Source: a virus
DNA length: 64,000 nt
Virus record (IMG/VR): IMGVR_UViG_3300009709_000020
Location: 38,787-102,786 of that record
Reading direction: 5' to 3' (one strand)
In this document: in pieces, positions 3,401-52,345 of the stretch
Layout: every line of letters starts with the position of its first letter
Position numbering within the stretch: position 1 is the first letter of the stretch
Notes under the pieces: generated by a model
What the model saw: the letters and a program-made list of their open reading frames with translations, nothing else
Told to the model about the DNA's origin: nothing
Databases searched by the model: none
Program-made: the position numbers and the translations under genes

Positions 3401-6400
3401 TATGATTCGTCAACTCCTGTATTAAAATGTGACATAGAAAAAAGCACAAATACTATTTGGCCATCAATAAAAGTTTTTTATAACAATGCATATGTCAATA
3501 ATGACAAATATTCGGTTATAACCGATGCTAATTCAACTGAAGTAACATTGATTACTCCACCCAGTGACGGAACACCAGTTGAAGTACTGCTGTTAAGTGA
3601 TCAGGTATCTGCTAATGGTTATTACGATATTCCAACCAATTTAAATAACAATCCATTGAATAATTCTTTGGAAAAAGTTAATTTAGATGAAATTAGGCTA
3701 CAATTTAATGACATTTTTATTAATAATGGAACAATAACAGGTTCCATTAACGGAGCAAATTCATACCGTGACTCAGGAAATCCAATTGGTTACGGTACAA
3801 AACTAATACAAAATCAATGCCCTGTTGTCACACCTGGTCTTTTCTTGCGTGATTCTTCGTTGAATCTACAGGAAGCATTGTTGTTTAACAGTAGAGAATA
3901 TGTAAAATATAAACAATTATTGACATTTACTGTTCAAAATTCAAATTATGATGTGACATATTCTCCTGCAGATATATTGGACGATGCAATCGAGCAAATT
4001 TCACTAGCAAGGACTGAATCAAATTCTTTCTATTGGACTGATATGTTACCGTCAAGAGTCCCTTATATTTCGAAAACGTATACTTTCAGGAACAATACAA
4101 ATAATGTAGCACTTTCATTATCGAAAATTTACGATTTTTCTGTTGCAAGTTATGATTCTGTGCTAGTGTACCTAATTCGAGTTGTAAATGGTAAGAAAAA
4201 TGTAATCCAACTACAAAAAAATGTGGACTATACCGTTAGTTCAACAGCCACAAACGTAATAATTACAAAACAACTATTGCAAAATGATATTATCACTGTT
4301 AATGAATATAATCAGACCTATGCATCTTACGTTCCTCATACACCTAGCAAATTAGGTTTGTATCCGCTATTTGTGCCTGAAATCATACTGGATAACAATC
4401 TAGTAACACCTACTTATTTCATCAAAGGACATGATGGTTCATATACGAAATTATATGGATCATATGACGCCAATACCGAATCGTTGAATGACTTTAGAGA
4501 CATTGCGTTATTTGAATTTGAAAACAGAATATACAACAATACTAAATTGTCATCAACTGTTCCCGTCATTGATCTAACCGAAATTAAACCCGGTTATTTT
4601 AGAGATGTACCGACATTTAGTGATTGGTTGTCAGTATATACCGCTAATTTCATGAATTGGGCCGGACAAAATAGAATTGATTATACCTCTCATTATTTTG
4701 ACAAAAATAATCCATTCACCTTTAATTACCGAAATTCATCAGAAAAACTTACAAACACTGCAAACAACATTGGTAATTGGGCGGGATTGTATCAATATTT
4801 CTATGATACATTTACCCCACATTTAACACCATGGGAAATGCTAGGATTTTCTATTAAACCATCATGGTGGGATGCACGCTATGGTGCTGCACCATACACC
4901 AGCGGTAATACAATATTATGGAATGACTTGCAACTAGGTTTTGTATGGAATGACGGTGATTCCTACACTAAAGAAAAATATGCCAGAGATCGTTTAGCTG
5001 AAATAATTCCTGTGGATGCCGCAGGCAATCTATTGGATCCTATGACAGTTCTAGTAGGAAATTATGATGCCAATATTTTTCAAGCTGATTGGATTATAGG
5101 TGATACAGGACCAGCAGAATTATCATATCGCAGAAGTTCCTCGTATCCATTTGACATTATCAACGCATATTCTTTACTGAAACCCGCCAAGTTCTACAAT
5201 CTAGCGATAGATTTGGATGTGTACCAATATAATACAGAATTTGGTCAATGGTTAACAAATGGTAGAAATTCATTGACCCTCTCAGACATCAAAGTATATG
5301 GTTCTGGTATTGCTAAAACAAGTTATTTAAATTGGATAGTAGATTATCAAAAACAGCACGGCATTGATGCTAGTTCTTATATTTCCAATAAGCTATCCAA
5401 CGTAGATGTTAGATTGACTTACCGTTTGGCTGGATTCAGTGATCAAACATTGTTGAATTTTTCATTGGAAAAAGTTTCACCCAATGACAACAATACTGCA
5501 CTAAAAATTCCAAACGAAAACTATAACATTATTTTGTATAATAATCAACCACATGACCAATTAACAATGTCAAGTGTGATCATTCAAAAAACTGGAAATA
5601 ATTGGGCCGTATACGGAAATTCACAGTCAAGTGCATATTTTGTAATTGATTCTCCTGTAATTAATGGAAAAACAATTGCAGTTGAATATGGTTCTGCAAC
5701 AGTTAAAGTTGCACAAGATTATAGCCAAACAAAACAATATATCCCATATGGTACTATTTTTTATAGTACACAGGAAATTGCGCAATTTATTAAATCATAT
5801 TCATCGTCATTGGAAACAAAAGGTGTAATTCTAGACCAAACATTCAATGGTTCACCAATTAATTGGGACACGATGATTCAAGAATTTTTATATTGGTCAC
5901 AAACCGGATGGGAATCAGGCAGTGCAATTACGTTAAATCCTGCATCAACCACGTTAAAAATAACCCCTCCGATGGGTATTGTGCAACCATTAACAAATTC
6001 TGCTGATAATTTCATTTTAAATCAAAATTTATATCCAATCAAATCCAAAGATTTGGATGTATATCGTCAGGACAATAGTTTCACTGTATCTACATTGAAT
6101 CCCGGTGATTCAATGTCATACACTCAATTGGATTATGCGTCACTTGAACACGGAATTGTGTTTGACAATACAACTATGTTCAATGATGTTATTTACGATC
6201 TAACAACAGGTCTACGTCAATACAGGATAATGTTGTCCGGAAGAAAAACTGCAGAATGGAACGGAACATTAACTACCAATGGATTCTTCCTAAGCCAAGA
6301 TAATATTGTTGCCTGGTCAACAGGGACGAAATATTATGCAGGCAATATTGTGACATACAAAAACAAATATTGGGCCGCCCAACAAACTGTCGAGGCTGCG

Positions 6401-9400
6401 TCAAATTTTGATACTTCGGTATGGAAAATAGTAAAAACTGAATCAATTCGCTATGGCATGTTACCGAATTCAGCAAACAGGGCGTATGAAAGCACACTAT
6501 TTTATGATGTAGATAGATCAAATCTAGCATCAGATAATGACCTATTGTCAATGTCATTGATTGGTTACAGACCTAGGGATTACCTAGCCCTAGCTGATTT
6601 AACAACTGCTGCACAACTCAATGTATACAAAAATTTTATCAAAAATAAAGGTACTCCCAATTCACTTGAAGTATTCAATACGGTCAATCTTGCCCAAGGA
6701 GAACTAAAATACGACATACACGAAAATTGGGCAATAAAAACAAGCCAATTCGGTGATAAAAACTCAGGTAAATACATCGAAATGCAATTGGACGAGACAC
6801 AAATTACTGGAAATGCGTCTATTATTTCTGTAACAAATGGTGATGTTCCTGCAGGAACATCACAAATAGTACCAATTAACAAGCTGTATAATTACAATTT
6901 CAATGTACTATCACCTAATATATTGCCATTAATGGAAAGTCAAGATCAACAAACTGCAGGATATGTTTCATTTGATGATGTAAATGTTTTTTCTTATAAC
7001 TTTAGTGGATTAGATAATGCCACTGATTCTACCGGAAACCTGTTGGATATTAATAATCTATACACGGGCGATTACATTTGGGTTGCAAATTTTAATGGTT
7101 CTTGGGGAGTGTACTCTACTGTTATCCAAGGAACCATTACATCAATCACTTATGGTTCATCATACAGCACAGTAACTTTTTCTGATCCACATGAATTGTC
7201 AGTAAATGACCCAATTGCAGTCATTCAAACAACCGATGACATTAATGGTTATTATCAGGTAAATACGGTTGTTGATAGCAAAACAATTACTATTCCTTAT
7301 GCAAATGCATTAAATTCAGGAAAAACAATTGAATTATTGGGATTTGTGCTAAAACTAGAAAACAAAAGATATTCTACTATTTCATCATTACCTGATATAG
7401 TTAATGTGTTTGACAAAAATGATATTTATTGGATCGATGAAGATTCAAATGGCAGATGGGCTGTATATCAAAAAACGTCAAACAAATATTCTTTGGTGGA
7501 TACTATTTCTACTTTAAGTGGCAATAACAAAGCAATTGTTTCTGAAGAATTAGGTATACTTATTACCAATGGAAATAATGTAGATCGTTATTCAATGGTT
7601 GGTACTGACTACCTGTTAACAGAAACCATTAATGGTGGCGCTGGCTTTGGATCATCTATTGCAACCTCAGATAGAACGATTTTCATTGCTAACTCAATTA
7701 CTCAACAAATTAATGTGTATTATAACAATGATACCGTGTTGTCATCAAATTCTGTTCTAATCAATACAATTGATTTAGCGTGCGACAAAATTTGGATTTC
7801 CGAAGATGGAAATTATTTGTATGCATCTGACACCTCAACCAATTCTATCAATGTTATCAAAAAAATAAATTATGATATTTCTGCTGAATTCATGACTGCC
7901 GGAAGAGCATATATTATCCAAACTCTCGGAGATTCAGATTGGGTTTCTGTAGGTGCAATTGAAAATTCACCGAATGTGGTTTTTGTTGCCTCAGGTCCAA
8001 TAACACCGTCGACTGGCGTTGCCAAAGAAATATCGTATGAATTAGGCTTTACTATTTCAGGAAGTGAAACTGGATTTGGTACTGATTTTGCCTCGTCATC
8101 AACTGGTCATACTATTGTTGTCGGATCACCTGACAAAATTATTAATTCATTGCAAGGAGTCGGCGGCGCCTACATTTATGTACAGGATGCACAAACCACA
8201 AAAACTTCATACCAAAACAATAACAATCCTGAACAAATCGGAATAGTATTCTCGAACAATGCCGTAATAGCTAATGCTTTTACAACTGTTACAGGTTCAA
8301 ATATATATTTTAGCGTGCCTGCAGGATTAAAAATAAATGATCGTGTAGTTTTCGGTGGAGCATATATCGAAAATTATGGTTTCAACACCTCTGCGGTTTA
8401 TTACGTGCAATCAGTATCTCCTACATATATCACGGTGAAATCTACAATTTCTTCAAATACTCCTGTGTTATTTGATTCAATAACTGGTATATCAGGTCAA
8501 TGTTATATTCAAGATAACACGGTTGATGTATTTGTTAATGGAACGGTTGTTACCACTGACAATTATTTTATCAAAAATTCAACTCTGACATATATTGGAA
8601 ATTTTTCGGCAGGCGATATTATTGCAATTGTGTTCTCAAGCTACACATTGACACAAACCTTGGCTGGTAACAATACAACTAGAATTGATTCTCATTATGG
8701 ATCATCTGTTACTATTGATCGATCAGGAAATGAAATTTTTGTAAGTTCTCCGTATGAAGTTTCTACTTCTTCTGAAGGATCGGTTTATCGATACACAAAT
8801 ACTGCAGGCATTTCAGGAACTATCCTAGGATCCAATATTTGTAATGTAACGATTTCCGGTACTGTAACTATCAACGGTTATCCAATTGTAATTCCAATTG
8901 GTAATTCTGTTGTTGCTTCATCAGTAATCAATAATTCAAAAATACCAAACATAGTCGCGTCATCCGTTGACGGAAAAGTAATGATTTCTGTAATCAATGA
9001 TAGTGAAACTATTGCACTTCAAAAAATTATTATTAATGCACCGGAATCATTGTTAACTCAACTTGGAATTTTGTTGAGAACAAACACACAAGTAATCAGG
9101 TCCTCAGATACCTATGCAAAAACCGGATTCGGCTATTCATTGGCGATAACGGATAATGAATTATTCGTGTCAAGTATTAATTCTGTTTGTGAATCACAAG
9201 TTACTTTTGACACGGTGTATAAAAATGACCACACCAATACTGTGTTTGATAATCAAACTACGTTGTTCTATGATGTGTCACCTGCAACTGGATTGGTAGA
9301 AACTTTCAATCTTATTGAGGGTCCTAATTATACAAGACAATACGTATACGGTCAGTCATTGTCAGTGGATGACGATGATATTAATTTTGGAAACAACCTT

Positions 9401-12400
9401 TCAATTGCCGGCAATAATTTAGTTATTTCATCTGAAAATGCCACGTTTAACGTTAACGTTTTTTACGGAACAGAAGAGAATTGGTCTGTATTGCGACAAG
9501 AATCAGTAACGGTTGATATAAATTCAATCGACGGAATTAACTTGTACAGCAAGACAAATAGCGTTTCATTGGTAAATCTAGATTACATTGATCCGTTGAA
9601 TGGAAAAATTTTAGGAGTCGCTAGAGAAAACATTGAATTCATGTCAACTGTTGATCCAGCAAAATATAATTCAGTTTCTTCAGGAATCACTTCAGTATGG
9701 GGTGCTGAATTCGTTGGTATGTGTTGGTTTGATATGTCAAATACAAAATGGATTGATTATAATCAAACAGATATAACATACAATATTAAATATTTCGGTA
9801 AGGTATTCCCAGGATCAGATCCGGCGGTATATACCTGGATAAATAGTGCATATCCTCCGGCATTGTATTCCGGTACCGGAACAGTATATGATATTTCCAA
9901 ATATTGCTCAAAGTCAACCTTAGACAATTCCGGGAATATTATTACTACATATTATTTCTGGGTTAGAAATACAAATACCATTACACAAAATCACACTTTA
10001 GCAGATACGGTTATTGAAAATTACATTAAGAATCCTGCTGCATCTGGTGTTGCTTATTGTGCACTACTTACACCTTCATCATATGCATTGTATAATGCTG
10101 TTCCTTATATCAATGGTACAGATACTATCATGCATTTAGGATTTTCTACCGGTTCTGATTTGGAAGGAAACATCCACACTGAGTATAGTTTAATTAGGGA
10201 AAATTATGAAGATGATTTCTTGTACGGAATTCCTGAAAACACAAATACTAACTTATTGCCAAATCATGATCTATATCCAACGAGTGGAGAAAAAACTCCA
10301 TATGGATTATATCTAAAATTACTTGATAGTTTTTCAGGATCCAATACATTTGGTAATCCGGTACCGGATCCATTCTTGCCAATGCCAATACAATCAGGTA
10401 TTTCAATCCGACCAAGCCAAAGCATGTTTATGGATAGATTGTCTGCTCTAGAAAATTTTGTTACATACATTAACAATATATTGGCATCATATCCTATAAC
10501 AGAAACTAGAACAAATATAACTCTGTTACAAACAACTGGAACATATTTCAATACGAACGATTATTGGTCATATGAAAATTGGTGGGTAGAAGGTTTTGAC
10601 AATAATACAAAACCAACCAGACAAGTTTCTGTATATGCTGATTTAAATATGCTTTCAGTAAATGCAGGAACATTGGTCAAAGTAAACGATAATGGATTTG
10701 GTAAATTTGAAATTTATCAGTATACGGGCGATGCTTGGAATAGAATAGGTTTAGAAAGCGGTACCATTCAACTTTCATCAAATCTATATGACTATATTGA
10801 TTATAATATTGGGTTTGATGGAAGTTTCTTTGACACCGATAGTTTTGATTTCTGTCCTTCAGAAGAAACCAGATATGTTATCAGAGGGGTTTTTGAACAA
10901 CTGTTAGTTGATGATTTGTTGTCATATAGAAATCCTGCGTTAATCATGCTTTTTGAATATATCCAAAGTGAAGAACCTGCATACGGAACAAATATTGATT
11001 GGTTGAAGAAAACATCACTTGTTGATATTTCTCATGACGTCAGGCAATTAACACAACAAAATGTATATAAATCAGATAACGAGACTTTCTTGGAAGGATT
11101 CATTAATGAAGTAAAACCATACAGAGTGCTAATCAAAGACTATTTGTTTACCTATTCAGGAATAGACGAAGCCAATATATATGCTACTGATTTTGATCTG
11201 CCTGCATCTATTATGGGGTCTGAGTTTGTTACCCCGATGTTGACAGATACACCAAACGCATCAAATGAATTTTTGCCAAGTGACAATATCTGGAATCAAA
11301 ATATTTACACTGATTGGTTCAAATACAAAGGATTGTCATTAGCACAAGAAAACAATTACAGAATTGCTTACCTATCTTCGTATATAGATACCAGCACTAG
11401 AGAAATTGAGGTAGATAATTCCTACGTATTCCCTGAATCAGGCACAATTACTATCAATGGTGAAATTTTAGGATATTCTGGTGTCAACAGAGCATTAAAT
11501 TTGTTGACAGGAATTATTCGCGGAGTTAATAATACTACTATTTCAACACATTTTCCTGGTGCAGAAATTTTCATGGATATTCCTGAAATTATTATGCTTA
11601 ACAGTGGCAATAATTATGCATCTACTCCAAATGTTACTGCATTTATTGACACTACCATTTATCCTGAACCAGAAATTGAGATGGAACTAGAAGCAATCAT
11701 GAGTAACGGATCAGTGATCAGTATCAACGTGCTAAATCCTGGACAAGGATATTTTACTGTTCCTGAAATTATGATTGATCCGTCATATATAATATACTTT
11801 GATGATAATTCAATTGATACAGCATTGTATACACTGAATTTATATGCACCTAATCTAACGACAGGTGACATAATTCAATTCTCCGGCAACAATTCGAGTG
11901 TCCCTGAAAATATTGTCAATGGCGCATGGTATTATGTAAATGTATTGGAAACCACACCCAATACAATTATTGCATTGTATAAAACATACAGGGATTCAAT
12001 AAACGATAGAGCAAGAATAAAAATAGGAATTTCCGGAACAACCAACACTATGGCCCTGAACGCAGGTGCAAGAGCAGTTGCTGTTACTACTCCCAATCCA
12101 GTAAGAGACATCAAAATCAATTTGAAGTTTGATAGAACAACATACAGAAATAGAGTATTAGACTGGAATGAAGGTGTCTATTATGGTTCATATTTTGCCG
12201 GAACATTATATGATAGCAGCCGCATTTCAAGTTCTTCTTACACATTGCAAAATGTGTATCCAAACATCGATACTATTCTTGCGAGTAATCACGGTGCTAC
12301 GTTTGAAATAGTAAATGTAGAGAATATTGAACAAACTGAATGGTCTACTATCGTCAGAACTGTTACTAGTGTCATCAACAATGTTATCACTATTACACCT

Positions 12401-15400
12401 CCATCTGTATTACAGAATTCGTTTGATAGTACAGTTGGATTTATGGTTAATTCTCCTATTAAATTCGGTTCAAATATTTCAGGATTAATCGAAAACCAAA
12501 CATATTATGTTAATTCCGTATTGAATACATATCAATTTACGGTATCAGACACTGTTTCAGGTAATGTATTATCAATTCCTGACCAAACCGTAAACTCTAC
12601 TGCTATTCCTGGAATAGTAGCTGACCAAGGCAGAATCACGGTCAACTATAAGGGCATTGTGACAATTACTGGTACAGAAAAAACCACAAATAAATTGTTC
12701 ACTGAATTATCAGTCGCTGGCACCCAAGGAACAACAAACTTTTACAAGGGCGCACCCATCTTTTTCGTGGAAAACGTGTTTGGTAATATTGTGGAAAATC
12801 AAGTATATTATGTAAACACAATTGTTGATAATGAAACATTTACTGTAAATAAAGTCGATAATTTCATTACTACAGTGGTAACCGCAACAGATGGTTCAAA
12901 CAATACTATTATAGTAGGTGATTCGACTGATTTTATCATTAACGATCCAATCATGATTGTAGGTGATCTAGCTGGAACAAATATAGTTTCAGGAAAACTG
13001 TACTATATTAACGAAATAGTTGACATAAATCATGTAAAAATTTCATTGTTAACCAACAATGAACCTGTTGTGCTGAACACAGTAGCAGATGTATTAGCTA
13101 CTATGGATAATCAAAAAAATACTGTTCCATTAACAACAACCACAGGATCCATGATTGCTAACATGTCATTACCTGTAAGTCCCGGACAAATTGATGGACA
13201 GTTGTTCTCATTTTACAAAACTTCCGGATTTAAATCAGGTTTAACATCTAGCACCTATTCAAACTTATTAACTGGTACCATTTCTGCTACAAATGGTTCC
13301 ACTAATAGAATTTATGTAGGAAGCATTGATACTACTACATATTATGAAAATATGCCGATAGAAGTATTTGCCACTGCAAATGGTCTATCAGTCAATACAC
13401 CGTATTATATTACTAATATAGGTAAGGTATCATTGACAGTAACGTCAACTAATGGAACCATACTAACATGTAATTCCACCACCGAATTGTATTCAGGAAT
13501 GAAAATAATCTTCTCTGGCAATTCATTAGGAACGTTAATTCTAGGTCAAGAATATTATGTGGTCGATGTATTAAGTCCAACAACATTTACGATTACAAAC
13601 GTAAAAGGTTCTCCGGCAATCACATTGACTGCATCAACTGGTGCAATGCTTGGTGGAGGCGATAATTATTTCGAGTTGAGTCTATCTCCGGGTGGAAGCA
13701 ATGTTGCATTAACTACCGGTGTCACTTCAATTCAATACACACAATATATTACTTCATATCCGACAATTGATATTTCATACAGATTGGGAGGATATACTGC
13801 ATTGATTGCCAATTCTGGATCCGGATTCTCGATCAACAATACCATTGTATTTTCAGGTTCAGCAGTAGGAGGAAGTTCACCTCAAAATGATATTACATTG
13901 AAGGTAAACACAGTAGATACCTTAGGACAAATTACAAGTGTTATTGTCACTGGAACTCCTCCTGCATTATCAGAAAACTTCTACTTAAAAGTTGTTTCTG
14001 ATACGGAGTTAGATATTTTTTCTGACAAAGAATTAAAATCTTCTGTTCCTGCATCTAATTTGAACTACACTGGATATACCATGACTTCCGTATCCAGATT
14101 AACTGCTCCTTATTCGTTGACATTGGGATCGACCTCAGGCTTTTATGTTGGAGATTCGGTATATATCACTGGCGACAATACCGGAACATTCGTGGCAGGA
14201 AAAGAATATTTTGTGTATTCTATAACCTCTGACACAAACATGATTCTCTCTACCCTTCCCGGAGACAACACAACAATTGTTCCCGTAACAGACAATAATG
14301 TTACATTGACCATTGCAAAACCCGGTGATTTTATATTCCTGTCAGAACCATTCTATTTCACTCAATCAATCGTAAAATACAACAACAGACTATATGAGTG
14401 TGTTGTATCAAATCATGATACCGAATTTGTGTTAGGCAAATGGAATGAAATTAATGCAAATGATATCAGATTAAATGCTTTGGATAGGACATTTGTTTAT
14501 TATGATCCTACAGTAAATATGCCCGGAACTGATTTAACTCAATTGATTGATGGTCTAGTATATCCAAATCCAGTTTATATGGGTAACTATTTTGCACTTG
14601 ATCAACAATATGACGTTGATACTCATGTCGTAGACAATGATCCAAATGCAAGTTATACTATACAAGGAAATGATTTTTCATATAGCTATGGTCCAGAAGA
14701 ACTTATGCCCGGAAAAATTCAAGACAACATTTCTGTTATTTCTTCTACATTACCGGGAACTAACTGGGACGTAGTTACATATGGGCATACGGGTTTTGAC
14801 ATCACGAATCTCGAAATAACTCCTTCAGGATCAACCCAAACTATTTTTAGTTTCAAAAACGAATCACAAACAGTATCCGGAATTACAGTGCAGGAAATTG
14901 ATGGCACTACTGGATTGGCTACAACTATGCCTATAAGTTCATATTCGATAGATTGGGTAAACAAAGAAATTATTTTAGCTACTCCTCTACCATATTATCC
15001 AATTATTAACAGGTTACAGATTGAATTGTTTGAAACTGGCAATGGATATCAATTAGCTAAATCTGACACTGATGATGCACCAATTATTACTAATACTAAT
15101 ACTGGTTTTAATGAAATCAATCTTGCGTGTAACTATAATGAAGCATTGATTTCAGGCAATGGCGTGCTAAAATATGATAGTACATTAATTACAGAAGCAG
15201 TGACAGAAACTGTTGCAGCGACCAATAGATTAATTTGCACTGATGTTTCATTGTTTACCATCGGCAAAGCCATTACATTTGAGGGAGGATTGTTCGGTGG
15301 AATAGTAGCAAATCAACCTTATTACGTAAAAACTATTAATCCTGCATCAAATACCATTACTATTTCAGATTCATTTGATTCCTCCACTGGTACGGTTGGT

Positions 15401-17770
15401 CCAGTACTGTCCGTAACAGATGATTCGGGATCAATGATTGCAATCATTCAAAATGGAAACGGTCTTGTATGGACAGATCCTTACGTATTGCACAATGGTA
15501 CTAAATTAGTAGTAGGCGTAACAGATAAAATCTCTGCTATCAATAACAATGCATTGCAGACAATTTCCACTGAAAATATGGCGGTAGGCAATGAGATAAC
15601 ATTTGACACGTCTGCATTCGGGGGATTAATTCCTTTCAAGAATTACTACATAATTTCAATTAATAGTGCAACTTCATTTTCAATTTCCGAAACATTGGGT
15701 GGACCTACTGTAGTTTTAACAAATTCTTCAGGTGGTTCAACTTTTATCACAAATGATTATGCATTTGATGTGCAAACAGACGGAACAACTGCGAAAATTA
15801 TTTTCGCAGAAACAGGTTTAACACAAGAAAATGATTATATATCATTTACTGTATTCGGTGAATCATTGCCCGATCAATATGGTTATTCTATTCCCGAAAT
15901 TCAGAATTTTAAAGGAAATGGTTCAACTACGTACCAATTGACAAATTTCGTTGAATATGAAAACCCTGATCATGCAATAGTAGAGGTAAATGGGTTGAGA
16001 GTTATGCCAAATACATTCACAATCAATGGAGAATTGAACAATATTGTGTTTAATTCTGCAAAAACAAATGCAGATGAAATAAATGTTATGTCATTTAATG
16101 ACACCAATAGGCAATATCTAACAACATCAGATGTACTAACAGGAAAGTCAGTGGTTAATATTGTCAATGTTAACACATCTGTTTCAGATTATACTGTGCG
16201 TGGATGGGTAACCTCATCAAATAGTTCAAACAATCAATTAACTGCGGTATCTCCTGGAGGTACTACAGGAATGATTTCAGGACAATCTATTTCTTTCTAC
16301 GGAACAAGCTTCGGTGGAGTTAATACAACGGATAAAGTTTATTACGTAGGAACAGTAGTATCTTCTAGTAACTTTACTATTGTCGATAACACCGGAACAG
16401 TGGTTACGTTGACCACTGCTACTGGTTACATGGATTTTACTGTCGGAGGAATGGAAACCACTAGAATTACAACAGGAGCTCCTCACAATTTTACCACTAA
16501 TGAGAAAGTAAGAATGTATGGTATTGAAGGATCTATAGAACTAAACAATAACATATATTATGCAAGATATATTACGCCTACAGTATTTGATATATATACA
16601 GCACCATTTACACAAACATTGAGTGGTTCAAATTCTCCCGTAACTTCTGCAAGTTCATACACGGGTTCGGGCTATGCATCATCATTGGGACAATACAGAA
16701 TTATTACAACTGAATCCACTTCAATCAATTCTAACTTAATTGTATGTACTTCTGTTGACCGAATGATTCAAGGCAATCCAGTATATTTCTCTGCGGCCGG
16801 TTATCAGGATGGTGACACAATAGTCTCTGGCATTGTGCAAGGACAAAAATATTATGTTGGTACAATTGATCCAAACGCCTTTGGGTTCAGCATCAGTACA
16901 ACGCAATTTGGTCCTGATATTGTATTAACTAATTCAGTTCAGAACATGAATGTTACTTTATGGAATCAGCTAAATCCTGATAGAGTTTGGGTATATTTAA
17001 ATGGTAAACGTGTTCCTTCATCAAAAATTACAATTTCTGATGTAAATGAAATTTCTATTAATAATGTTATTATTTCGTCAGACCAAATAATCATTACTAG
17101 CATGATTCCTACTGCTACTCCGCATGAACAAAAATTCATGAATATCATTGATTCGTCCGGTACGCAAACAATTTTTAACATGAATTCTCCATTCAGAACA
17201 TGGTTGACACATGATTTGTCAGCCACTGATACTGAATTATTTGTAAATGATGTAAGTAAGTTAACTGTAACAAAAATTCAAACAAATGTAGTAACTTTTG
17301 ACACAGATGGCTATTATGTGGGATTAAATGCTGATAAGAACAAGATTACATCAATTTCTGTTTTTAACGTGACCAGTCAGCAAACAATAGATACTGAACA
17401 TTATGTATCACTTATTTCAGGTATGTCGCCCGAAATAAGAATTGAACAAGGTGCGTGGATCAAACCCGGAGATACAGTAGAAATTACTATTTTGGAAGGA
17501 AATCTAATTTACGTTGCCGGAGAACAAATAATGTTTTCTGACATAAATGCTGAAACAAATTCAATTTCGGGCTTAGTAAGAGGTGTTAATGGAACCGGAA
17601 CCGTTCCGATGATTAATGTGAACGAAACGGTTTATTGTCTTTTGGACGTAAATCAAATGAATGAAAATTACAATAATGTTATTTGGAATTCATATGAGTA
17701 TAGTGCACTAGGTGATCCACTACAGATTAGTAATACGGTTCCTGCGCAATTTCTGAACACCGAATTCTGA
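500..17770 (+). CDS. Giant virion structural protein (baseplate/tail-associated), 5,756 aa
   Basis: Uninterrupted 17.3-kb ORF, T/S/N/G-rich beta-type composition, ~13 internal G..I.F....G......YYV repeats, structural-gene context, late promoter. Confidence 0.8.
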   Translation: MATIRTLSFLPEIYRTKKNAEILSGTLDNIVSEPTYSRIQGYIGSKFGNGIDASASYIPEVNKERTDYQLTPSVISLDDDTKNVSDFITYPGMVNELTNRGSITNNNASLFEGNTSSWDSFTDLDKLVNYHQYYWLPDGLPSVDITGNSATSVLNYQVTSDVSTYSIEEINATSTNFNPSITLVRGKTYTFAVNQNSQFWIQTEPGLLGKSTLNPAISTREIYGVTNNGSESGTITFTVPYENAQETFEFSTRYLVDITSDKLATSIIGNHLYDLVDPVTGNIIPGVNNIDGITDLDGKIIFFPDTELPSSAGSHTYTDGVVVYQMPYFSSTDFGYFYKIVYEEDPNNTGNPILTLQRLEAIPFNASIVAKYGLTNINVPYYQVSSLVFAKVPNLTARLTKLYYQDSEVSTKTGIFNIVDDTASVIIDINDILGKKTYTSPNNIVFTNGLKIKFDSYVHPSSYANIEYYVDGVGSSINLIPVLNLVCPESFSESEYNTFDNFPFDADTFDVSMYIPVEPDYITIARSAINENAWSRSNRWFHTDVISAAGTYNNSDYLTTYATSNAKAKRPIVEFYPNLKMFNSGTTSVPFVDFYDSTTTDAFSNVAGKLSYYADIDAYVPVSTIAGTVTSPVNSSSLVAGQAYQISSLGNTNWNLVVGTSNIIYYVGDTIVCKNAVSGTGTATFLATSTTATLNSNNATGTFSAGMFVATEDATLLPAGSYIFSATTDDSGITTLVIHWDDPQNILGGNAALIATNNSMDNYQLFSGARIIFSNDVDETVRNNIYTVNITQVEENEAPVIVLSLADQGEPILGTQTVILRGESFKGKSIYFDGISWNLAQQKITINQPPLFDVLDKNENSLSDASIYASSSFTGTKLFSYSIGTGAPDSVLGFPISYSSTNNIGDIAFTVDFNSDIFNYVNGANVVTENINTGYVYQYSTPSSFNRLLGWTASVAPVPQYQIFNFVYDSSTPVLKCDIEKSTNTIWPSIKVFYNNAYVNNDKYSVITDANSTEVTLITPPSDGTPVEVLLLSDQVSANGYYDIPTNLNNNPLNNSLEKVNLDEIRLQFNDIFINNGTITGSINGANSYRDSGNPIGYGTKLIQNQCPVVTPGLFLRDSSLNLQEALLFNSREYVKYKQLLTFTVQNSNYDVTYSPADILDDAIEQISLARTESNSFYWTDMLPSRVPYISKTYTFRNNTNNVALSLSKIYDFSVASYDSVLVYLIRVVNGKKNVIQLQKNVDYTVSSTATNVIITKQLLQNDIITVNEYNQTYASYVPHTPSKLGLYPLFVPEIILDNNLVTPTYFIKGHDGSYTKLYGSYDANTESLNDFRDIALFEFENRIYNNTKLSSTVPVIDLTEIKPGYFRDVPTFSDWLSVYTANFMNWAGQNRIDYTSHYFDKNNPFTFNYRNSSEKLTNTANNIGNWAGLYQYFYDTFTPHLTPWEMLGFSIKPSWWDARYGAAPYTSGNTILWNDLQLGFVWNDGDSYTKEKYARDRLAEIIPVDAAGNLLDPMTVLVGNYDANIFQADWIIGDTGPAELSYRRSSSYPFDIINAYSLLKPAKFYNLAIDLDVYQYNTEFGQWLTNGRNSLTLSDIKVYGSGIAKTSYLNWIVDYQKQHGIDASSYISNKLSNVDVRLTYRLAGFSDQTLLNFSLEKVSPNDNNTALKIPNENYNIILYNNQPHDQLTMSSVIIQKTGNNWAVYGNSQSSAYFVIDSPVINGKTIAVEYGSATVKVAQDYSQTKQYIPYGTIFYSTQEIAQFIKSYSSSLETKGVILDQTFNGSPINWDTMIQEFLYWSQTGWESGSAITLNPASTTLKITPPMGIVQPLTNSADNFILNQNLYPIKSKDLDVYRQDNSFTVSTLNPGDSMSYTQLDYASLEHGIVFDNTTMFNDVIYDLTTGLRQYRIMLSGRKTAEWNGTLTTNGFFLSQDNIVAWSTGTKYYAGNIVTYKNKYWAAQQTVEAASNFDTSVWKIVKTESIRYGMLPNSANRAYESTLFYDVDRSNLASDNDLLSMSLIGYRPRDYLALADLTTAAQLNVYKNFIKNKGTPNSLEVFNTVNLAQGELKYDIHENWAIKTSQFGDKNSGKYIEMQLDETQITGNASIISVTNGDVPAGTSQIVPINKLYNYNFNVLSPNILPLMESQDQQTAGYVSFDDVNVFSYNFSGLDNATDSTGNLLDINNLYTGDYIWVANFNGSWGVYSTVIQGTITSITYGSSYSTVTFSDPHELSVNDPIAVIQTTDDINGYYQVNTVVDSKTITIPYANALNSGKTIELLGFVLKLENKRYSTISSLPDIVNVFDKNDIYWIDEDSNGRWAVYQKTSNKYSLVDTISTLSGNNKAIVSEELGILITNGNNVDRYSMVGTDYLLTETINGGAGFGSSIATSDRTIFIANSITQQINVYYNNDTVLSSNSVLINTIDLACDKIWISEDGNYLYASDTSTNSINVIKKINYDISAEFMTAGRAYIIQTLGDSDWVSVGAIENSPNVVFVASGPITPSTGVAKEISYELGFTISGSETGFGTDFASSSTGHTIVVGSPDKIINSLQGVGGAYIYVQDAQTTKTSYQNNNNPEQIGIVFSNNAVIANAFTTVTGSNIYFSVPAGLKINDRVVFGGAYIENYGFNTSAVYYVQSVSPTYITVKSTISSNTPVLFDSITGISGQCYIQDNTVDVFVNGTVVTTDNYFIKNSTLTYIGNFSAGDIIAIVFSSYTLTQTLAGNNTTRIDSHYGSSVTIDRSGNEIFVSSPYEVSTSSEGSVYRYTNTAGISGTILGSNICNVTISGTVTINGYPIVIPIGNSVVASSVINNSKIPNIVASSVDGKVMISVINDSETIALQKIIINAPESLLTQLGILLRTNTQVIRSSDTYAKTGFGYSLAITDNELFVSSINSVCESQVTFDTVYKNDHTNTVFDNQTTLFYDVSPATGLVETFNLIEGPNYTRQYVYGQSLSVDDDDINFGNNLSIAGNNLVISSENATFNVNVFYGTEENWSVLRQESVTVDINSIDGINLYSKTNSVSLVNLDYIDPLNGKILGVARENIEFMSTVDPAKYNSVSSGITSVWGAEFVGMCWFDMSNTKWIDYNQTDITYNIKYFGKVFPGSDPAVYTWINSAYPPALYSGTGTVYDISKYCSKSTLDNSGNIITTYYFWVRNTNTITQNHTLADTVIENYIKNPAASGVAYCALLTPSSYALYNAVPYINGTDTIMHLGFSTGSDLEGNIHTEYSLIRENYEDDFLYGIPENTNTNLLPNHDLYPTSGEKTPYGLYLKLLDSFSGSNTFGNPVPDPFLPMPIQSGISIRPSQSMFMDRLSALENFVTYINNILASYPITETRTNITLLQTTGTYFNTNDYWSYENWWVEGFDNNTKPTRQVSVYADLNMLSVNAGTLVKVNDNGFGKFEIYQYTGDAWNRIGLESGTIQLSSNLYDYIDYNIGFDGSFFDTDSFDFCPSEETRYVIRGVFEQLLVDDLLSYRNPALIMLFEYIQSEEPAYGTNIDWLKKTSLVDISHDVRQLTQQNVYKSDNETFLEGFINEVKPYRVLIKDYLFTYSGIDEANIYATDFDLPASIMGSEFVTPMLTDTPNASNEFLPSDNIWNQNIYTDWFKYKGLSLAQENNYRIAYLSSYIDTSTREIEVDNSYVFPESGTITINGEILGYSGVNRALNLLTGIIRGVNNTTISTHFPGAEIFMDIPEIIMLNSGNNYASTPNVTAFIDTTIYPEPEIEMELEAIMSNGSVISINVLNPGQGYFTVPEIMIDPSYIIYFDDNSIDTALYTLNLYAPNLTTGDIIQFSGNNSSVPENIVNGAWYYVNVLETTPNTIIALYKTYRDSINDRARIKIGISGTTNTMALNAGARAVAVTTPNPVRDIKINLKFDRTTYRNRVLDWNEGVYYGSYFAGTLYDSSRISSSSYTLQNVYPNIDTILASNHGATFEIVNVENIEQTEWSTIVRTVTSVINNVITITPPSVLQNSFDSTVGFMVNSPIKFGSNISGLIENQTYYVNSVLNTYQFTVSDTVSGNVLSIPDQTVNSTAIPGIVADQGRITVNYKGIVTITGTEKTTNKLFTELSVAGTQGTTNFYKGAPIFFVENVFGNIVENQVYYVNTIVDNETFTVNKVDNFITTVVTATDGSNNTIIVGDSTDFIINDPIMIVGDLAGTNIVSGKLYYINEIVDINHVKISLLTNNEPVVLNTVADVLATMDNQKNTVPLTTTTGSMIANMSLPVSPGQIDGQLFSFYKTSGFKSGLTSSTYSNLLTGTISATNGSTNRIYVGSIDTTTYYENMPIEVFATANGLSVNTPYYITNIGKVSLTVTSTNGTILTCNSTTELYSGMKIIFSGNSLGTLILGQEYYVVDVLSPTTFTITNVKGSPAITLTASTGAMLGGGDNYFELSLSPGGSNVALTTGVTSIQYTQYITSYPTIDISYRLGGYTALIANSGSGFSINNTIVFSGSAVGGSSPQNDITLKVNTVDTLGQITSVIVTGTPPALSENFYLKVVSDTELDIFSDKELKSSVPASNLNYTGYTMTSVSRLTAPYSLTLGSTSGFYVGDSVYITGDNTGTFVAGKEYFVYSITSDTNMILSTLPGDNTTIVPVTDNNVTLTIAKPGDFIFLSEPFYFTQSIVKYNNRLYECVVSNHDTEFVLGKWNEINANDIRLNALDRTFVYYDPTVNMPGTDLTQLIDGLVYPNPVYMGNYFALDQQYDVDTHVVDNDPNASYTIQGNDFSYSYGPEELMPGKIQDNISVISSTLPGTNWDVVTYGHTGFDITNLEITPSGSTQTIFSFKNESQTVSGITVQEIDGTTGLATTMPISSYSIDWVNKEIILATPLPYYPIINRLQIELFETGNGYQLAKSDTDDAPIITNTNTGFNEINLACNYNEALISGNGVLKYDSTLITEAVTETVAATNRLICTDVSLFTIGKAITFEGGLFGGIVANQPYYVKTINPASNTITISDSFDSSTGTVGPVLSVTDDSGSMIAIIQNGNGLVWTDPYVLHNGTKLVVGVTDKISAINNNALQTISTENMAVGNEITFDTSAFGGLIPFKNYYIISINSATSFSISETLGGPTVVLTNSSGGSTFITNDYAFDVQTDGTTAKIIFAETGLTQENDYISFTVFGESLPDQYGYSIPEIQNFKGNGSTTYQLTNFVEYENPDHAIVEVNGLRVMPNTFTINGELNNIVFNSAKTNADEINVMSFNDTNRQYLTTSDVLTGKSVVNIVNVNTSVSDYTVRGWVTSSNSSNNQLTAVSPGGTTGMISGQSISFYGTSFGGVNTTDKVYYVGTVVSSSNFTIVDNTGTVVTLTTATGYMDFTVGGMETTRITTGAPHNFTTNEKVRMYGIEGSIELNNNIYYARYITPTVFDIYTAPFTQTLSGSNSPVTSASSYTGSGYASSLGQYRIITTESTSINSNLIVCTSVDRMIQGNPVYFSAAGYQDGDTIVSGIVQGQKYYVGTIDPNAFGFSISTTQFGPDIVLTNSVQNMNVTLWNQLNPDRVWVYLNGKRVPSSKITISDVNEISINNVIISSDQIIITSMIPTATPHEQKFMNIIDSSGTQTIFNMNSPFRTWLTHDLSATDTELFVNDVSKLTVTKIQTNVVTFDTDGYYVGLNADKNKITSISVFNVTSQQTIDTEHYVSLISGMSPEIRIEQGAWIKPGDTVEITILEGNLIYVAGEQIMFSDINAETNSISGLVRGVNGTGTVPMINVNETVYCLLDVNQMNENYNNVIWNSYEYSALGDPLQISNTVPAQFLNTEF

Positions 17771-19875: not shown

Positions 19876-20181
19876 ATGGGTATGTTTAAAATGAGCACAG
19901 GTGATAGCTGGAAACAAAATCCAACAAACCCTAACCCGAAATCATTTATAATCTTGAAAATGTATTGTTTTTCTGATATGTGGGTAGCTGAAATTAAATA
20001 TCCGAATTGTACTAATTTCGAAGGTATCAAGATTCTTGTTCTACGAGAAGATCCGTCAGGGATGTCTGAAATCGATCCTCATTTTTATGAGCAAGGGCCT
20101 ATTGTAGCTCGATTTGAACCCAATGATAATGGTTGGAATCAAGCAATGTGGTTTGCCGAAACATTCTCCAAAAAGGATTGA
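19876..20181 (+). CDS. Hypothetical protein
   Basis: 101-aa ORF with GGAG SD; TTGACT-17-TAATGA promoter at 19801-19829. Confidence 0.7.
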   Translation: MGMFKMSTGDSWKQNPTNPNPKSFIILKMYCFSDMWVAEIKYPNCTNFEGIKILVLREDPSGMSEIDPHFYEQGPIVARFEPNDNGWNQAMWFAETFSKKD

Positions 20182-20399
20182 ATTGGCATTCAATGTGAAA
20201 TAATTTTTACAGGCATTCCGGATATTATATCCTCATGCGTATTATAGAAACTATTATTTCATTATAAACTATCTCTGCTTCATTTCATTTCGCAGAAGAT
20301 CAAACTTGAGTTATTTTTTACTCACTCTCGTTCGTAAAATAACACACAGTTTATATTTTTAATTAGTTTTTCTTTTTATATAGGACTTAATTATATATA

Positions 20400-21510
20400 G
20401 GCCAATAGATACTCTTGTAGAAGGAGAGCCATGGTAGTGCTTCTTTCAAAGCACTACCAATGGTTAGTTTGCTAAAAGTAAATTTGAAATGTACTTGTAG
20501 AAAGTGTCACTCTAGTCGCAAGTCCCCGATTCAACTATCCATTCCTGATGTTGAAACGATACCGGTCACGTTGTAAATTATTATGGGAAGTAGTGGGTGT
20601 TAACCATGACGCATGTTCAGATTCGTCTTGCTGCATTTATGAATCTGACTCATTCCGGGATTGCTATACCAGTAGCCAAGAGCCCGGTCGGTATAATACC
20701 AGTCTATCTGTCAAATTTTATATTGAATGTTCCATATGGCGTTCAAACTCTTTGGCATTACTCTAGCGGGACATATTTTTAAAAATAGTTTCCATAGCAT
20801 GAAATCTTAGGCGACCGTACGTCTTAAGCAGAGAGTCACCCGGGACAGATACCATGGACAATTAATGCCAAATACCCAAACCAAAAATAAATTTTAAAAA
20901 AATATTTTATTAATGGTTTCGGGTTTTGGCATCACGCCGCACCAAAGATAGTCTTTCATACTCCTACAAGTACTAATGACCTCAGGTTTCTTCATCGATA
21001 GCACGTATACCTAACATTCTAATATACTTCACTAACAGGCCTTTGTTTTGGTTTACTCAATAACTCATCATGTCATTGAACCTTCAACGTTCTTCTTCCC
21101 CCGGGCGTTATCATATCCTTTTAAGACTGAACACACAGATATGTTTACATTATTTTTTCGGGGCGTAATTCTCGTTGCTTGCATTTCTCGGGCTTCCTCC
21201 GAGTATTTTTGTTTGTAAATTGGTAAATATGGTCGTGTGAACATATTTGTGTTAATCCAATCCCAAGCTGTTCTGTTATGATTTTTTAAAGATGTCATCA
21301 TAAAGAACGAAACCGACAGACTACTTCACATGGTTGACAGTACAATGAATTAATTCATTGTGCTGGTCTTGTCCCTAGAATCTGATCGCATTCATCAGTG
21401 GTGCAATTTCAAAGGGGATCGAGGTACCTCGATCAAGCGACGATGGCATTTTACCGCAATATGTTCAATATGAACTAGGAATCTGGATAGATGTATTGCG
21501 TCAAAATGTA
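20400..21510 (+). ncRNA. Candidate large structured non-coding RNA (family unassigned; boundaries approximate)
   Basis: Longest gene-free stretch in the window; at least 9 stems including a long-range 20491-20500/20964-20973 pairing; G-U pairs fit only the + strand. Confidence 0.55.
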
Positions 21511-21559
21511 AATTAATTATACATAATTAAAATATAAAAATCAACCATTAAATAAATTC

Positions 21560-22972
21560 ATGAACATAAAAGAAATTGCCAATTTTAAATTGTCAGATGC
21601 AGTAAAATTCCACAAAACCCTAAATCCTAAACTTTGGGAAGATAATCATTTGATTCCTGAGGTTAGAGAAAAATTATTGGTTATTGCAGAAGATTTCTTG
21701 GAAGAACTTGGTATTCATCCTTTAAAGGTTGAAGATGTTCGCATCTATGGATCAAATACATCATACACTTATACCATTCATAGTGACATAGATTTACACA
21801 TATTAGTTGATTATAATGATTTGCCGGACAACGATGTATATAAAGAGTTGTTCAATGCAAAGAAAACAATTTACAATGAAACGCACAAAGTAAAAATTCG
21901 TGGAATTCCAGTAGAGTTATATGTACAAGATACAAATGAAGAGAATAAATCCATCGGAACATACAGTATATTACATGATCATTGGATCAAATATCCACAG
22001 AAACAAGATGTTACTATTGATGAGGCATCTGTTAAAGCAAAATATGAAAAATTAGCAGATTATGCTGACCATGTGTTAAAAACCGAAAATCCATATAAGT
22101 TAGACACTTTTTTGAAATTGCTTAAGCGATATAGACAAGCGGGATTAGAAAAAGGGGGAGATTTGGGCCCCGAAAATCTTGTTTTTAAATTACTAAGAGC
22201 CAATAATTACATTGGAAAAATTAGAAAATTAAAACAAAAATTGCACGGACAACAATTATCACTTGAACATATAAATGAGGCATCCGGATATATACCTTCC
22301 GAAAAAGAAAAAAATGATCCCCGTTTTAAAACTGGGTTGACAGTTGATGTTAAACCAGACTCAATTCAAAAAAATGCAAAAGCATTTGGCTCAAAAGTTT
22401 CTCGTCCTGGTATCCCGCCCCAAGCAAAAACAAACGGAAAAATTTCAGAAAATTTTGAATTTAAGTCATTCCAGATTCACAATGAAGATAACACTGATTC
22501 GGACATGGAAAATTTTCTAAAATTGTTGCAAAACAATAATACTCCTCATAAATTACTAGAGGATGTTATGGATGCAATGGATAAGAAATCTACCCGAATA
22601 AATGAACAAAATGATCCTTCCGTAACCATTTCTCAACTAGAGCAATTTATCAATTCAAAAAAGATTGATTTGATAATAGGTAATAAATATATTCCGGTCA
22701 TGCTTGCTCTTTTCAATGGCATATTAACTGTTTGTGACATACACAAAAATTCCTCTTTAATCACTCCTGCGGAATTTGGTGTACTGACAGAAATAAATGA
22801 ATATGATGTAAATATAGAATTTTCAAGTGGATCGTATCGCTATCCACTTGGGATTTATAAAATTGCAACTGTAACAGGAACAATTTTTGTTGAAACACCT
22901 GAAAATTATGAAAAATTACGAACAGCCATCGCGTTAAAATTTGATAAAGTTTTGCCTCCCCTAAAAATTTGA
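21560..22972 (+). CDS. Polymerase-beta-superfamily nucleotidyltransferase with C-terminal extensions
   Basis: IYGSN...SDIDLHI (GS, DxD) and VELYVQD; TTAAATA-5nt-ATG late promoter. Confidence 0.7.
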   Translation: MNIKEIANFKLSDAVKFHKTLNPKLWEDNHLIPEVREKLLVIAEDFLEELGIHPLKVEDVRIYGSNTSYTYTIHSDIDLHILVDYNDLPDNDVYKELFNAKKTIYNETHKVKIRGIPVELYVQDTNEENKSIGTYSILHDHWIKYPQKQDVTIDEASVKAKYEKLADYADHVLKTENPYKLDTFLKLLKRYRQAGLEKGGDLGPENLVFKLLRANNYIGKIRKLKQKLHGQQLSLEHINEASGYIPSEKEKNDPRFKTGLTVDVKPDSIQKNAKAFGSKVSRPGIPPQAKTNGKISENFEFKSFQIHNEDNTDSDMENFLKLLQNNNTPHKLLEDVMDAMDKKSTRINEQNDPSVTISQLEQFINSKKIDLIIGNKYIPVMLALFNGILTVCDIHKNSSLITPAEFGVLTEINEYDVNIEFSSGSYRYPLGIYKIATVTGTIFVETPENYEKLRTAIALKFDKVLPPLKI

Positions 22973-52240: not shown

Positions 52241-52332
52241 GGATGAGTGGCAGAGTGGTTTATTGCTGAAATCTACTAAATTTCCGAAGGCAGTGATCCT
52301 GCTTTCCGTGGGTTCGAATCCCACCTCATCCT
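52241..52332 (+). tRNA. Class II tRNA with anticodon ACT (Ser, AGU); CCA not encoded
   Basis: Acceptor GGATGAG/CTCATCC; D-loop with GG; anticodon arm GAAAT-CTACTAA-ATTTC; long variable arm GAAGGCAG/CTGCTTTC; T-arm GTGGG-TTCGAAT-CCCAC; promoter TTGACA-17-TATATT at 52204-52232. Confidence 0.88.
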
Positions 52333-52345
52333 CCGGAGATAAAAA

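Follow-up and report, generated by a model that had tools for sequence, protein, structure and literature searches.

What is a stretch of more than a kilobase without genes for, in a genome where genes are otherwise densely packed? The question is raised by locus A, at positions 20182-21559 of a 64,000-nucleotide stretch of viral DNA (the window, whose numbering is used here unless the record is named) which is the final 64 kb of the 102,786-bp IMG/VR virus record IMGVR_UViG_3300009709_000020, a densely packed giant-phage fragment placed by CheckV at about 30% complete. An original prediction had taken the 1.1 kb from 20400 to 21510 for a large, ornate non-coding RNA of the plus strand, or else for a structured replication origin. 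Comparison with relatives shows A to be an expanded paralog of an uncatalogued RNA of about 360 nucleotides (nt), here called the twin-box RNA, that is widespread in uncultured giant T4-like phages and in which a near-invariant hairpin, H1, stands between two short words of identical sequence.

Apparently no protein is made from A. Only two gene-free gaps of length occur in the record, A itself and a second, B, at record positions 21045-22311, outside the window. The expectation that the region is gene-free was borne out, in that no credible open reading frame (ORF) is found in A under three genetic codes, the longest stop-to-stop frame being 92 amino acids (aa) with table 11, and recoding (TAG read as glutamine, or table 4) opens nothing beyond 104 aa. 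The sole ORF with a coding-like skew, of 77 aa on the minus strand at 21068-21301, is without a Pfam, PHROG or sequence homolog.

A widespread family with a conserved core

Paralog B (L002:557-1823 in its retrieved locus) lies 38 kb upstream of A in the same genome, and five blocks occur in both, colinear and on the same strand, one of them with a 36-nt identical run. A word from this run found a third relative, C, on contig IMGVR_UViG_3300009709_000026. Used as a search pattern, the H1 stem matched 69 IMG/VR contigs, about 60 of which share the core of about 360 nt with A and B. Since this first retrieval relied on H1, it was repeated with a core motif excluding H1, and so at least 120 IMG/VR loci were obtained, mostly new ones. 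With a hidden Markov model (HMM) built from 45 family cores, nhmmer aligns A 20426-20694 to profile positions 13-272 (E = 4.4e-17) and A 21373-21433 to profile positions 297-357, and the same model matches B with E = 5e-29 and C with E = 1e-11.

The family seems to have no counterpart in the catalogues. As the original prediction had supposed, no Rfam 15 family is matched by cmscan in the A region at the gathering score or at E<=10, where only miRNA-like chance matches on an AT-rich arm appear, and nor is any matched in 12 family loci at the gathering score or in seven at E<=1-5. The Polynucleobacter-1 RNA motif (RF01718) is a freshwater motif (Weinberg et al. 2010, PMC2864571), and its covariance model has no match in the 102,786-bp record at E<=10, nor in the 18 family loci that were scanned for it. 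Neither A nor a typical family core finds a match among GenBank phages by blastn in distant mode, and the H1 hairpin used alone gives chance matches only. In prokaryote genomes, one from each of 185,579 species, there are 24 occurrences of the H1 pattern, which is about chance, and none of these extends past the hairpin. A metagenome scan with a 20-nt word particular to A, B and C returned only the contig of C and three chance matches in coding DNA, and so no new relatives in which to compare the insertion that enlarges A. Full-text literature searches by hairpin words, and under structured RNAs of jumbo phages, found nothing on the family, and an IMG/VR survey (PMC10690425) reports only motifs of 29-151 nt.

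Fold and covariation

An alignment (A3) of 36 sequences including A, B and C was made in what we call the M orientation, that is the window's minus strand, and holds nine named helices, two of them pseudoknots. Standard pairs fill 98.7% of its cells, against 87.7% in shuffled alignments and 31-44% when the partners are slid; changes on both sides are seen in 28 of the 47 pairs, and none of 500 shuffles reached any of these measures. The homolog covariation that the original prediction had asked for is therefore strong. Helices Me, Mf, Mg and Mh are paired in 99-100% of cases with both-side changes in 16 of 27 pairs, and Mf can serve to illustrate the pattern: it reads CCGGG/CCCGG in A, GAGGG/CCCUC in B, CUGGG/CCCAG in C and GGAGG/CCUCC in the family, while Mf2 is UUG/CAA in A and UCG/CGA in the family.

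The first pseudoknot, PK1, is held to the same pattern. In A it joins the Mg loop GCAAG (20626-20630) to CUUGC (20518-20522), fully compensatory with respect to the family UUAUCU/AGAUAA, and in B it joins CUCAUAG to CUAUGAG. Its partner strand lies some 130 nt downstream of the Mg loop, and in the family all six of its six pairs covary. The second, PK2, is a 3-bp pseudoknot.

H1 behaves differently, being held by sequence: its 3' strand in UGGUAGUGC/GCACUACCA is kept as GCACUACCA in 89 of 90 distinct motif-bearing sequences, 70 of them from newly fetched loci and with H1 unused in the retrieval, and its loop varies from 3 to 9 nt across the family. Two copies of the word CACUAC are present on the minus strand, one within the 3' strand of H1 and the other about 130 nt upstream (20585-20590), and both are invariant in the family. 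The 5' strand of H1, GUAGUG, could pair with either, and the arrangement may act as a switch between conformations or provide a second site for binding.

The stems from which the original prediction was built all exist in A, and most have a place in this fold. That at 20432-42/20449-59 is H1; 20617-26/20639-48 is Mg and 20655-59/20683-87 is Mf, both with compensatory changes among the 36 sequences; the 18-bp palindrome at 21417-34 is hairpin Ma; and 21455-64/21491-500 forms a leader hairpin showing covariation with C, reading CGCAATA/TATTGCG in A and CGTAATAAA/TTTATTACG in C (also given as CGUAAUAAA/UUUAUUACG). The stem TATCTGTC/GACAGATA fared less well: it is present in the minimum free energy (MFE) fold of the plus strand only, and those bases serve in the minus-strand fold to close the insertion as a whole.

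The transcribed strand

The RNA is very probably read from the window's minus strand. In the covariation-supported helices of core domain 2 there are 30 G·U pairs in the M orientation and five in the opposite one, all five in misaligned pseudoknot rows of A and C, and in domain 1 (alignment A4) three pairs add 26 M wobbles (UG:11, UG:11, GU:4). The MFE favours M in 23 of 32 non-redundant members, and H1 variants of the type UGGUGGUGC retain the partner GCACUACCA, so that the pair is G·U on M but would be C·A on the opposite strand. A host-type promoter pattern, TTGnnn-17-TAnnAT, lies on M 110-120 nt upstream of Ma in A, in B (TTGCAT-17-TATAAT) and in C (TTGCAA-17-TACAAT), the other strand having none in A and B and one poor match in C. 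Read on M, B is also in line with a long minus-strand gene block and follows a clean terminator (L002 1751-1725).

There is little chance that the RNA is instead that of the plus strand, as originally proposed. The proposal leaned on wobble positions, which in A alone give a mixed signal, Mh and Mc having their G·U pairs on minus, and which in the family mark the opposite strand by 30 to 5 and more. An invariant U-G reported by RNAalifold in the plus orientation belongs to a 1x3 internal loop, and A, B and C all have A·G there; a plus-strand RNA would also leave A and B without the TTGnnn-17-TAnnAT pattern, and would be antisense to the entire gene block of B. What counts against the minus strand comes from A itself. 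Its core pieces are more stable on plus (one at -82.4 kcal/mol against -74.9, the other at -40.1 against -33.1), the stem at 21338-65 (U·G on plus, C·A on minus) and the extension of Mg have their G·U on plus, and the flanking genes are all on plus, so A would be antisense to a plus-strand gene block. Promoter-like sites in the region number 10 against 8.8 in shuffles, no excess, and we infer the start and the end of the RNA, and transcription itself, from sequence.

Architecture of locus A

Judged from these comparisons A is not one ornate domain of 1.1 kb but a conserved core of about 360 nt with a lineage-specific insertion of about 680 nt. Of the original picture of a large multi-branch RNA, the structured, multi-branched and covarying character thus stands, and the single domain gives way to core plus insertion. 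Positions 20170-21544 are likely to form one minus-strand transcription unit for a non-coding RNA of about 1.3 kb, an expanded twin-box paralog.

Along the minus strand the unit would begin with a predicted sigma-70-like promoter at 21516-21544 (-35 TTGATT at 21544-21539, a 17-nt spacer, and -10 TATAAT at 21521-21516), from whose position a transcript start near 21509 is predicted. A 5' leader hairpin, CGCAAUACAU ... ACAUAUUGCG, follows at 21455-21500 and is confined to the A/B/C subgroup. Core domain 1 (21372-21434, HMM positions 297-357, 89% identical to B) holds hairpin Ma at 21417-21434, which covaries in alignment A4, helix Mb, which in A4 is CCCU/AGGG in A, B and C as against CUCC/GGAG in the family, and hairpin Mc, UUGCA/UGCGA, with U·G on minus only and differing from the main family.

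The insertion comes next, at 20695-21371 (or 20695-21372), in hairpin Md, and is skipped by the family HMM. Md is a short hairpin of variable length in the family, and the same place holds about 320 nt in B and about 315 nt in C. Within the insertion of A lie a hairpin at 21338-21365, a long AT-rich arm at 20865-20932, which is the only part common to A and B, and the word GUACUUGUAG at 20964-20973. Its MFE is -176 kcal/mol on minus and -155 on plus, 21 better on minus, and, as had been anticipated for a folded RNA, it folds better than shuffled sequence, with z-scores of -4.1 (minus) and -3.7 (plus). Its two ends pair together in both the MFE and the centroid fold of the minus strand, as expected of an arm grown from a hairpin.

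Core domain 2, at 20426-20694, carries the four-way junction Me/Mf/Mg/Mh, hairpins Mi and Mj, both pseudoknots and the invariant CACUAC word (about 20585-20597). H1 itself, UGGUAGUGCUU / AAGCACUACCA, is at 20432-20459. The twin boxes, both UUCUACAAG, are found at 20494-20502 (box 1) and at 20414-20422 (box 2), the latter about 12 nt past H1 as is usual in the family.

Behind the boxes is an AT-rich 3' tail (20195-20411), about 80% A+T in the stretch from about 20340 to 20411, with CGAA/GAA purine-rich loop hairpins at 20316-20339 and 20273-20298 and a further hairpin at 20220-20232. Tails in the family share such loop motifs, for example GAACGAAGUGAG and GAGCGAAGC. Clusters of G-N-GAAG and ACGAA words (GAGCGAAGCGAAG ... 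GAGCGAAGCUC) stand in or between two hairpins of the M-orientation tails, 60-150 nt past box 2, for example in loci L014 and L007, and the tail motif is kept in A, B and C (GAACGAGAGUGAG, GCGAAAUGAAAUGAAGC). A terminator-like hairpin, AUUGAAU-GCC-AUUCAAU followed by CCUUUUU, can be read at 20170-20194, where it overlaps the stop codon of a plus-strand 101-aa gene; having a single G-C pair in its stem, it was not called by a terminator scan.

The twin boxes

The words that flank H1 differ from phage to phage: A has UUCUACAAG (9 nt), B GGAAU and C AUGACA, and among other members GGCAA, GGCAUGU, GGCAAUG, CGGUAAU, AGUAAU and GCAAGCAGUU are found. Box 2 always lies about 12 nt after H1. Over 32 non-redundant members the longest word common to the two flanks of H1 has a mean length of 5.6 nt against 4.4 nt with one flank shuffled, a modest margin, and the stronger evidence for twin boxes is the fixed position of box 2 together with the boxes of 9-10 nt in A and in L062. 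Since the two boxes change together between phages, something reads both. A target-site duplication was considered for the boxes and is ruled out by their length of 5-10 nt and by their co-variation across lineages.

A word that matches the boxes in complement is present within A. This word, GUACUUGUAG (minus strand, 20964-20973), is perfectly complementary to box 1 over 10 nt and to box 2 over 7 nt, and no equivalent stands at that place in B or C. This is the long-range 10-bp pairing 20491-500/20964-73 that the original prediction had made the closing helix of its domain. It overlaps a twin box, finds no support among homologs and is near chance, a perfect 10-mer pair in 1.1 kb being expected about 0.6-1 times by our own arithmetic.

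What the RNA may do

The following scheme is consistent with these observations. Host sigma-70 RNA polymerase would transcribe the RNA early from TTGATT-17-TATAAT, with an end near the hairpin at 20170-20194. The core itself is built in the order Ma, Mb enclosing Mc, the variable Md, the four-way junction Me/Mf/Mg/Mh, PK1 and PK2, and H1 between the boxes; in A, Md has lengthened by about 680 nt to form an arm that closes on itself, and a leader of about 75 nt has been added. Quite what such an RNA does is a matter of tentative preference, and the reading we prefer, with somewhat less than even confidence, is that it acts as a folded scaffold, apart from its gene. Through the knotted core a partner would be offered both H1, to be read by its sequence, and the boxes, to be read through base pairs with a complementary word that is specific to the phage and present in two copies, and the insertion would be a peripheral expansion that leaves the core untouched, in the manner of expansion segments of rRNA or RNase P RNA. 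A free-standing scaffold is favoured on two grounds, the host-type promoter that A has to itself and the lack of a neighbouring nuclease gene; the promoter in particular argues for a free-standing product and not just the tail of a nuclease mRNA.

Several points weigh against this reading. The scaffold role is an argument by analogy only. No word complementary to the boxes occurs at a constant place in the family, and a 20.7-kb contig with the 10-nt box GCAAGCAGTT has the two boxes only, with no third copy. The terminator is weak, and the insertion may be tolerated rather than functional.

An origin or primer RNA is the main alternative, an unlikely one to which the layout of the locus lends some weight. 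Here the RNA would be made from its own promoter, its 3' part would pair with the AT-rich DNA behind the boxes, be cut and prime DNA synthesis in the way of ColE1 RNA II or T4 oriF and oriG, the purine-loop hairpins would load a primosome, and several copies would be several origins. T4 has several origins, two of which work via R-loops. The order promoter, long structured RNA, stretch of about 80% A+T, and then GCGAAGC-type and CGAA-loop hairpins would suit this well, as would the two copies in one genome fragment and the position of most relatives' RNA at the end of a recombination/replication operon. However, known R-loop origins need no doubly knotted RNA of 360 nt with 28 covarying pairs, no RNase H site, Rep-bound iterons or skew switch has been shown, and pairing of an RNA with its own template leaves the identity between the boxes unexplained.

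A further reading is that the RNA is programmable, with the identical and fast-changing boxes pairing with two copies of one word, for instance on two DNA junction arms or on two DNA molecules, and the core and H1 recruiting a phage enzyme. We hold this to be improbable. If true it would amount to a new RNA-guided DNA transaction in giant phages (origin firing, or junction and concatemer processing), and the 1.3-kb copy would be a second, separately regulated guide with an internal partner word, GUACUUGUAG at 20964-20973.

It seems about equally improbable that the boxes are guide-like or decoy words which direct or soak up a PDDEXK or GIY-YIG nuclease or a host immune protein. Variable words at fixed positions of a scaffold are the signature of guide segments, and nuclease genes are near to hand in the family, a small PDDEXK gene preceding the RNA in relatives and a SegE-like GIY-YIG gene preceding B. 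Yet A has no adjoining nuclease gene, and the GIY-YIG adjacency is weak evidence because homing genes of this kind commonly settle beside any highly conserved sequence; at 5-10 nt the boxes are moreover short, and a target for them was sought without success.

Least of all can it be credited that the locus is a DNA-level element without a functional RNA, its inverted repeats being protein sites, cruciforms, recombination sites or hairpins for single-strand replication: H1 is indeed a perfect inverted repeat conserved by sequence, mini-hairpins of the d(GCGAAGC) type do belong to single-strand phage origins, and folded single-stranded DNA and RNA are indistinguishable by these sequence analyses, but sites in double-stranded DNA cannot account for pseudoknot pairs that co-change 130 nt apart (six of six in PK1) or for a one-strand wobble bias, and an H1 loop of 3 to 9 nt is unlike an operator of fixed spacing. 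A group I intron was also considered and rejected, there being no Rfam intron match and no ORF on either strand that runs through the element, whether in A, B, C or 14 relatives; by our own reading the order of the helix strands does not fit P3-P8/P7 either.

Genomic setting

In most relatives the RNA ends a recombination operon that runs from a gp46-like gene through a radical-SAM gene to a PDDEXK resolvase-like gene, and it faces baseplate hub genes. The setting of B is much the family's, near a gp26/gp51-like baseplate hub gene and toward recombination genes, B itself following a SegE-like GIY-YIG/NUMOD3 homing endonuclease gene (L002 2199-3005).

The neighbourhood of A is unlike that of the family. 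A stands back-to-back with a gene of the Pol-beta nucleotidyltransferase type, which at 21560-22972 encodes a 470-aa protein with a weak signature of that fold (YGS...DxD), all Pfam matches being below cut-off, and with a match to PHROG 36119. This gene diverges from the promoter region of the RNA, and in no other family locus examined is there such a neighbour; an IMG/VR search with the neighbour proteins gave no match.

By the baseplate hub protein of the family loci, the closest cultured relatives are phages of 350-490 kb, for example Atu_ph07, Phosso and Escherichia phages of about 350-380 kb. The syntenic gaps of the nearest two, Atu_ph07 and Phosso, are without a family-profile match. 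In the Sinorhizobium phage Phosso (PV764938.1; L079:5233-6246) this is an unannotated gap of about 1 kb, between an RNase HI gene and a Holliday junction resolvase gene, that lies in a region syntenic with the family loci. In Agrobacterium phage Atu_ph07 (L078:3945-4573) three 'hypothetical protein' calls of 123-240 nt fill the stretch from the baseplate hub gene to the gp46 side, which is where relatives carry the RNA.

Elsewhere in the window a single ORF of 5,756 aa occupies 500-17770 on the plus strand, and ARAGORN finds a tRNA-Ser at 52241-52334 with the unusual anticodon ACT (Rfam tRNA score 49.5 bits). The sole Rfam match in the window at the gathering score is this tRNA, at 52241-52332. 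ARAGORN calls no tRNA or tmRNA in the A region or in six related loci, and no reverse transcriptase is found in the record, about 30% of the genome.

Comparison with known RNAs

To our knowledge large structured RNAs with conserved pseudoknots are rare, and those with a solved function are often ribozymes, ribonucleoprotein cores or regulators. The family described here is abundant in uncultured giant phages while absent from Rfam 15, from the cultured phages of GenBank and from the literature searched, and one phage can hold two diverged copies of it. That the core tolerates an insertion of about 680 nt at one hairpin marks Md as peripheral and makes it a useful site for engineering or tagging. 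The corrected strand matters for probes, for the reading of RNA-seq data and for covariance models built from the A locus.

The RNAs it most resembles in kind are GOLLD (RF01998) and ROOL (RF03087), which are likewise large, multi-branched and pseudoknotted, are often borne by phages and prophages, and come as free-standing RNA genes. In contrast to these, cmscan finds no match to either here, the twin-box core is only about 360 nt long and there is no association with a tRNA cluster. We know of no twin boxes in GOLLD or ROOL. Oligomeric cages are reported for both (PMC12286853).

With the ColE1 RNA II and the T4 oriF-oriG primer transcripts the likeness is one of layout, a promoter followed by a folded RNA, an AT-rich stretch and hairpins, and of a setting among replication and recombination genes. 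There is no homology with them, and neither an RNase H site nor an antisense regulator was identified here. The knotted core of the twin-box RNA is far more conserved than that of any known primer RNA.

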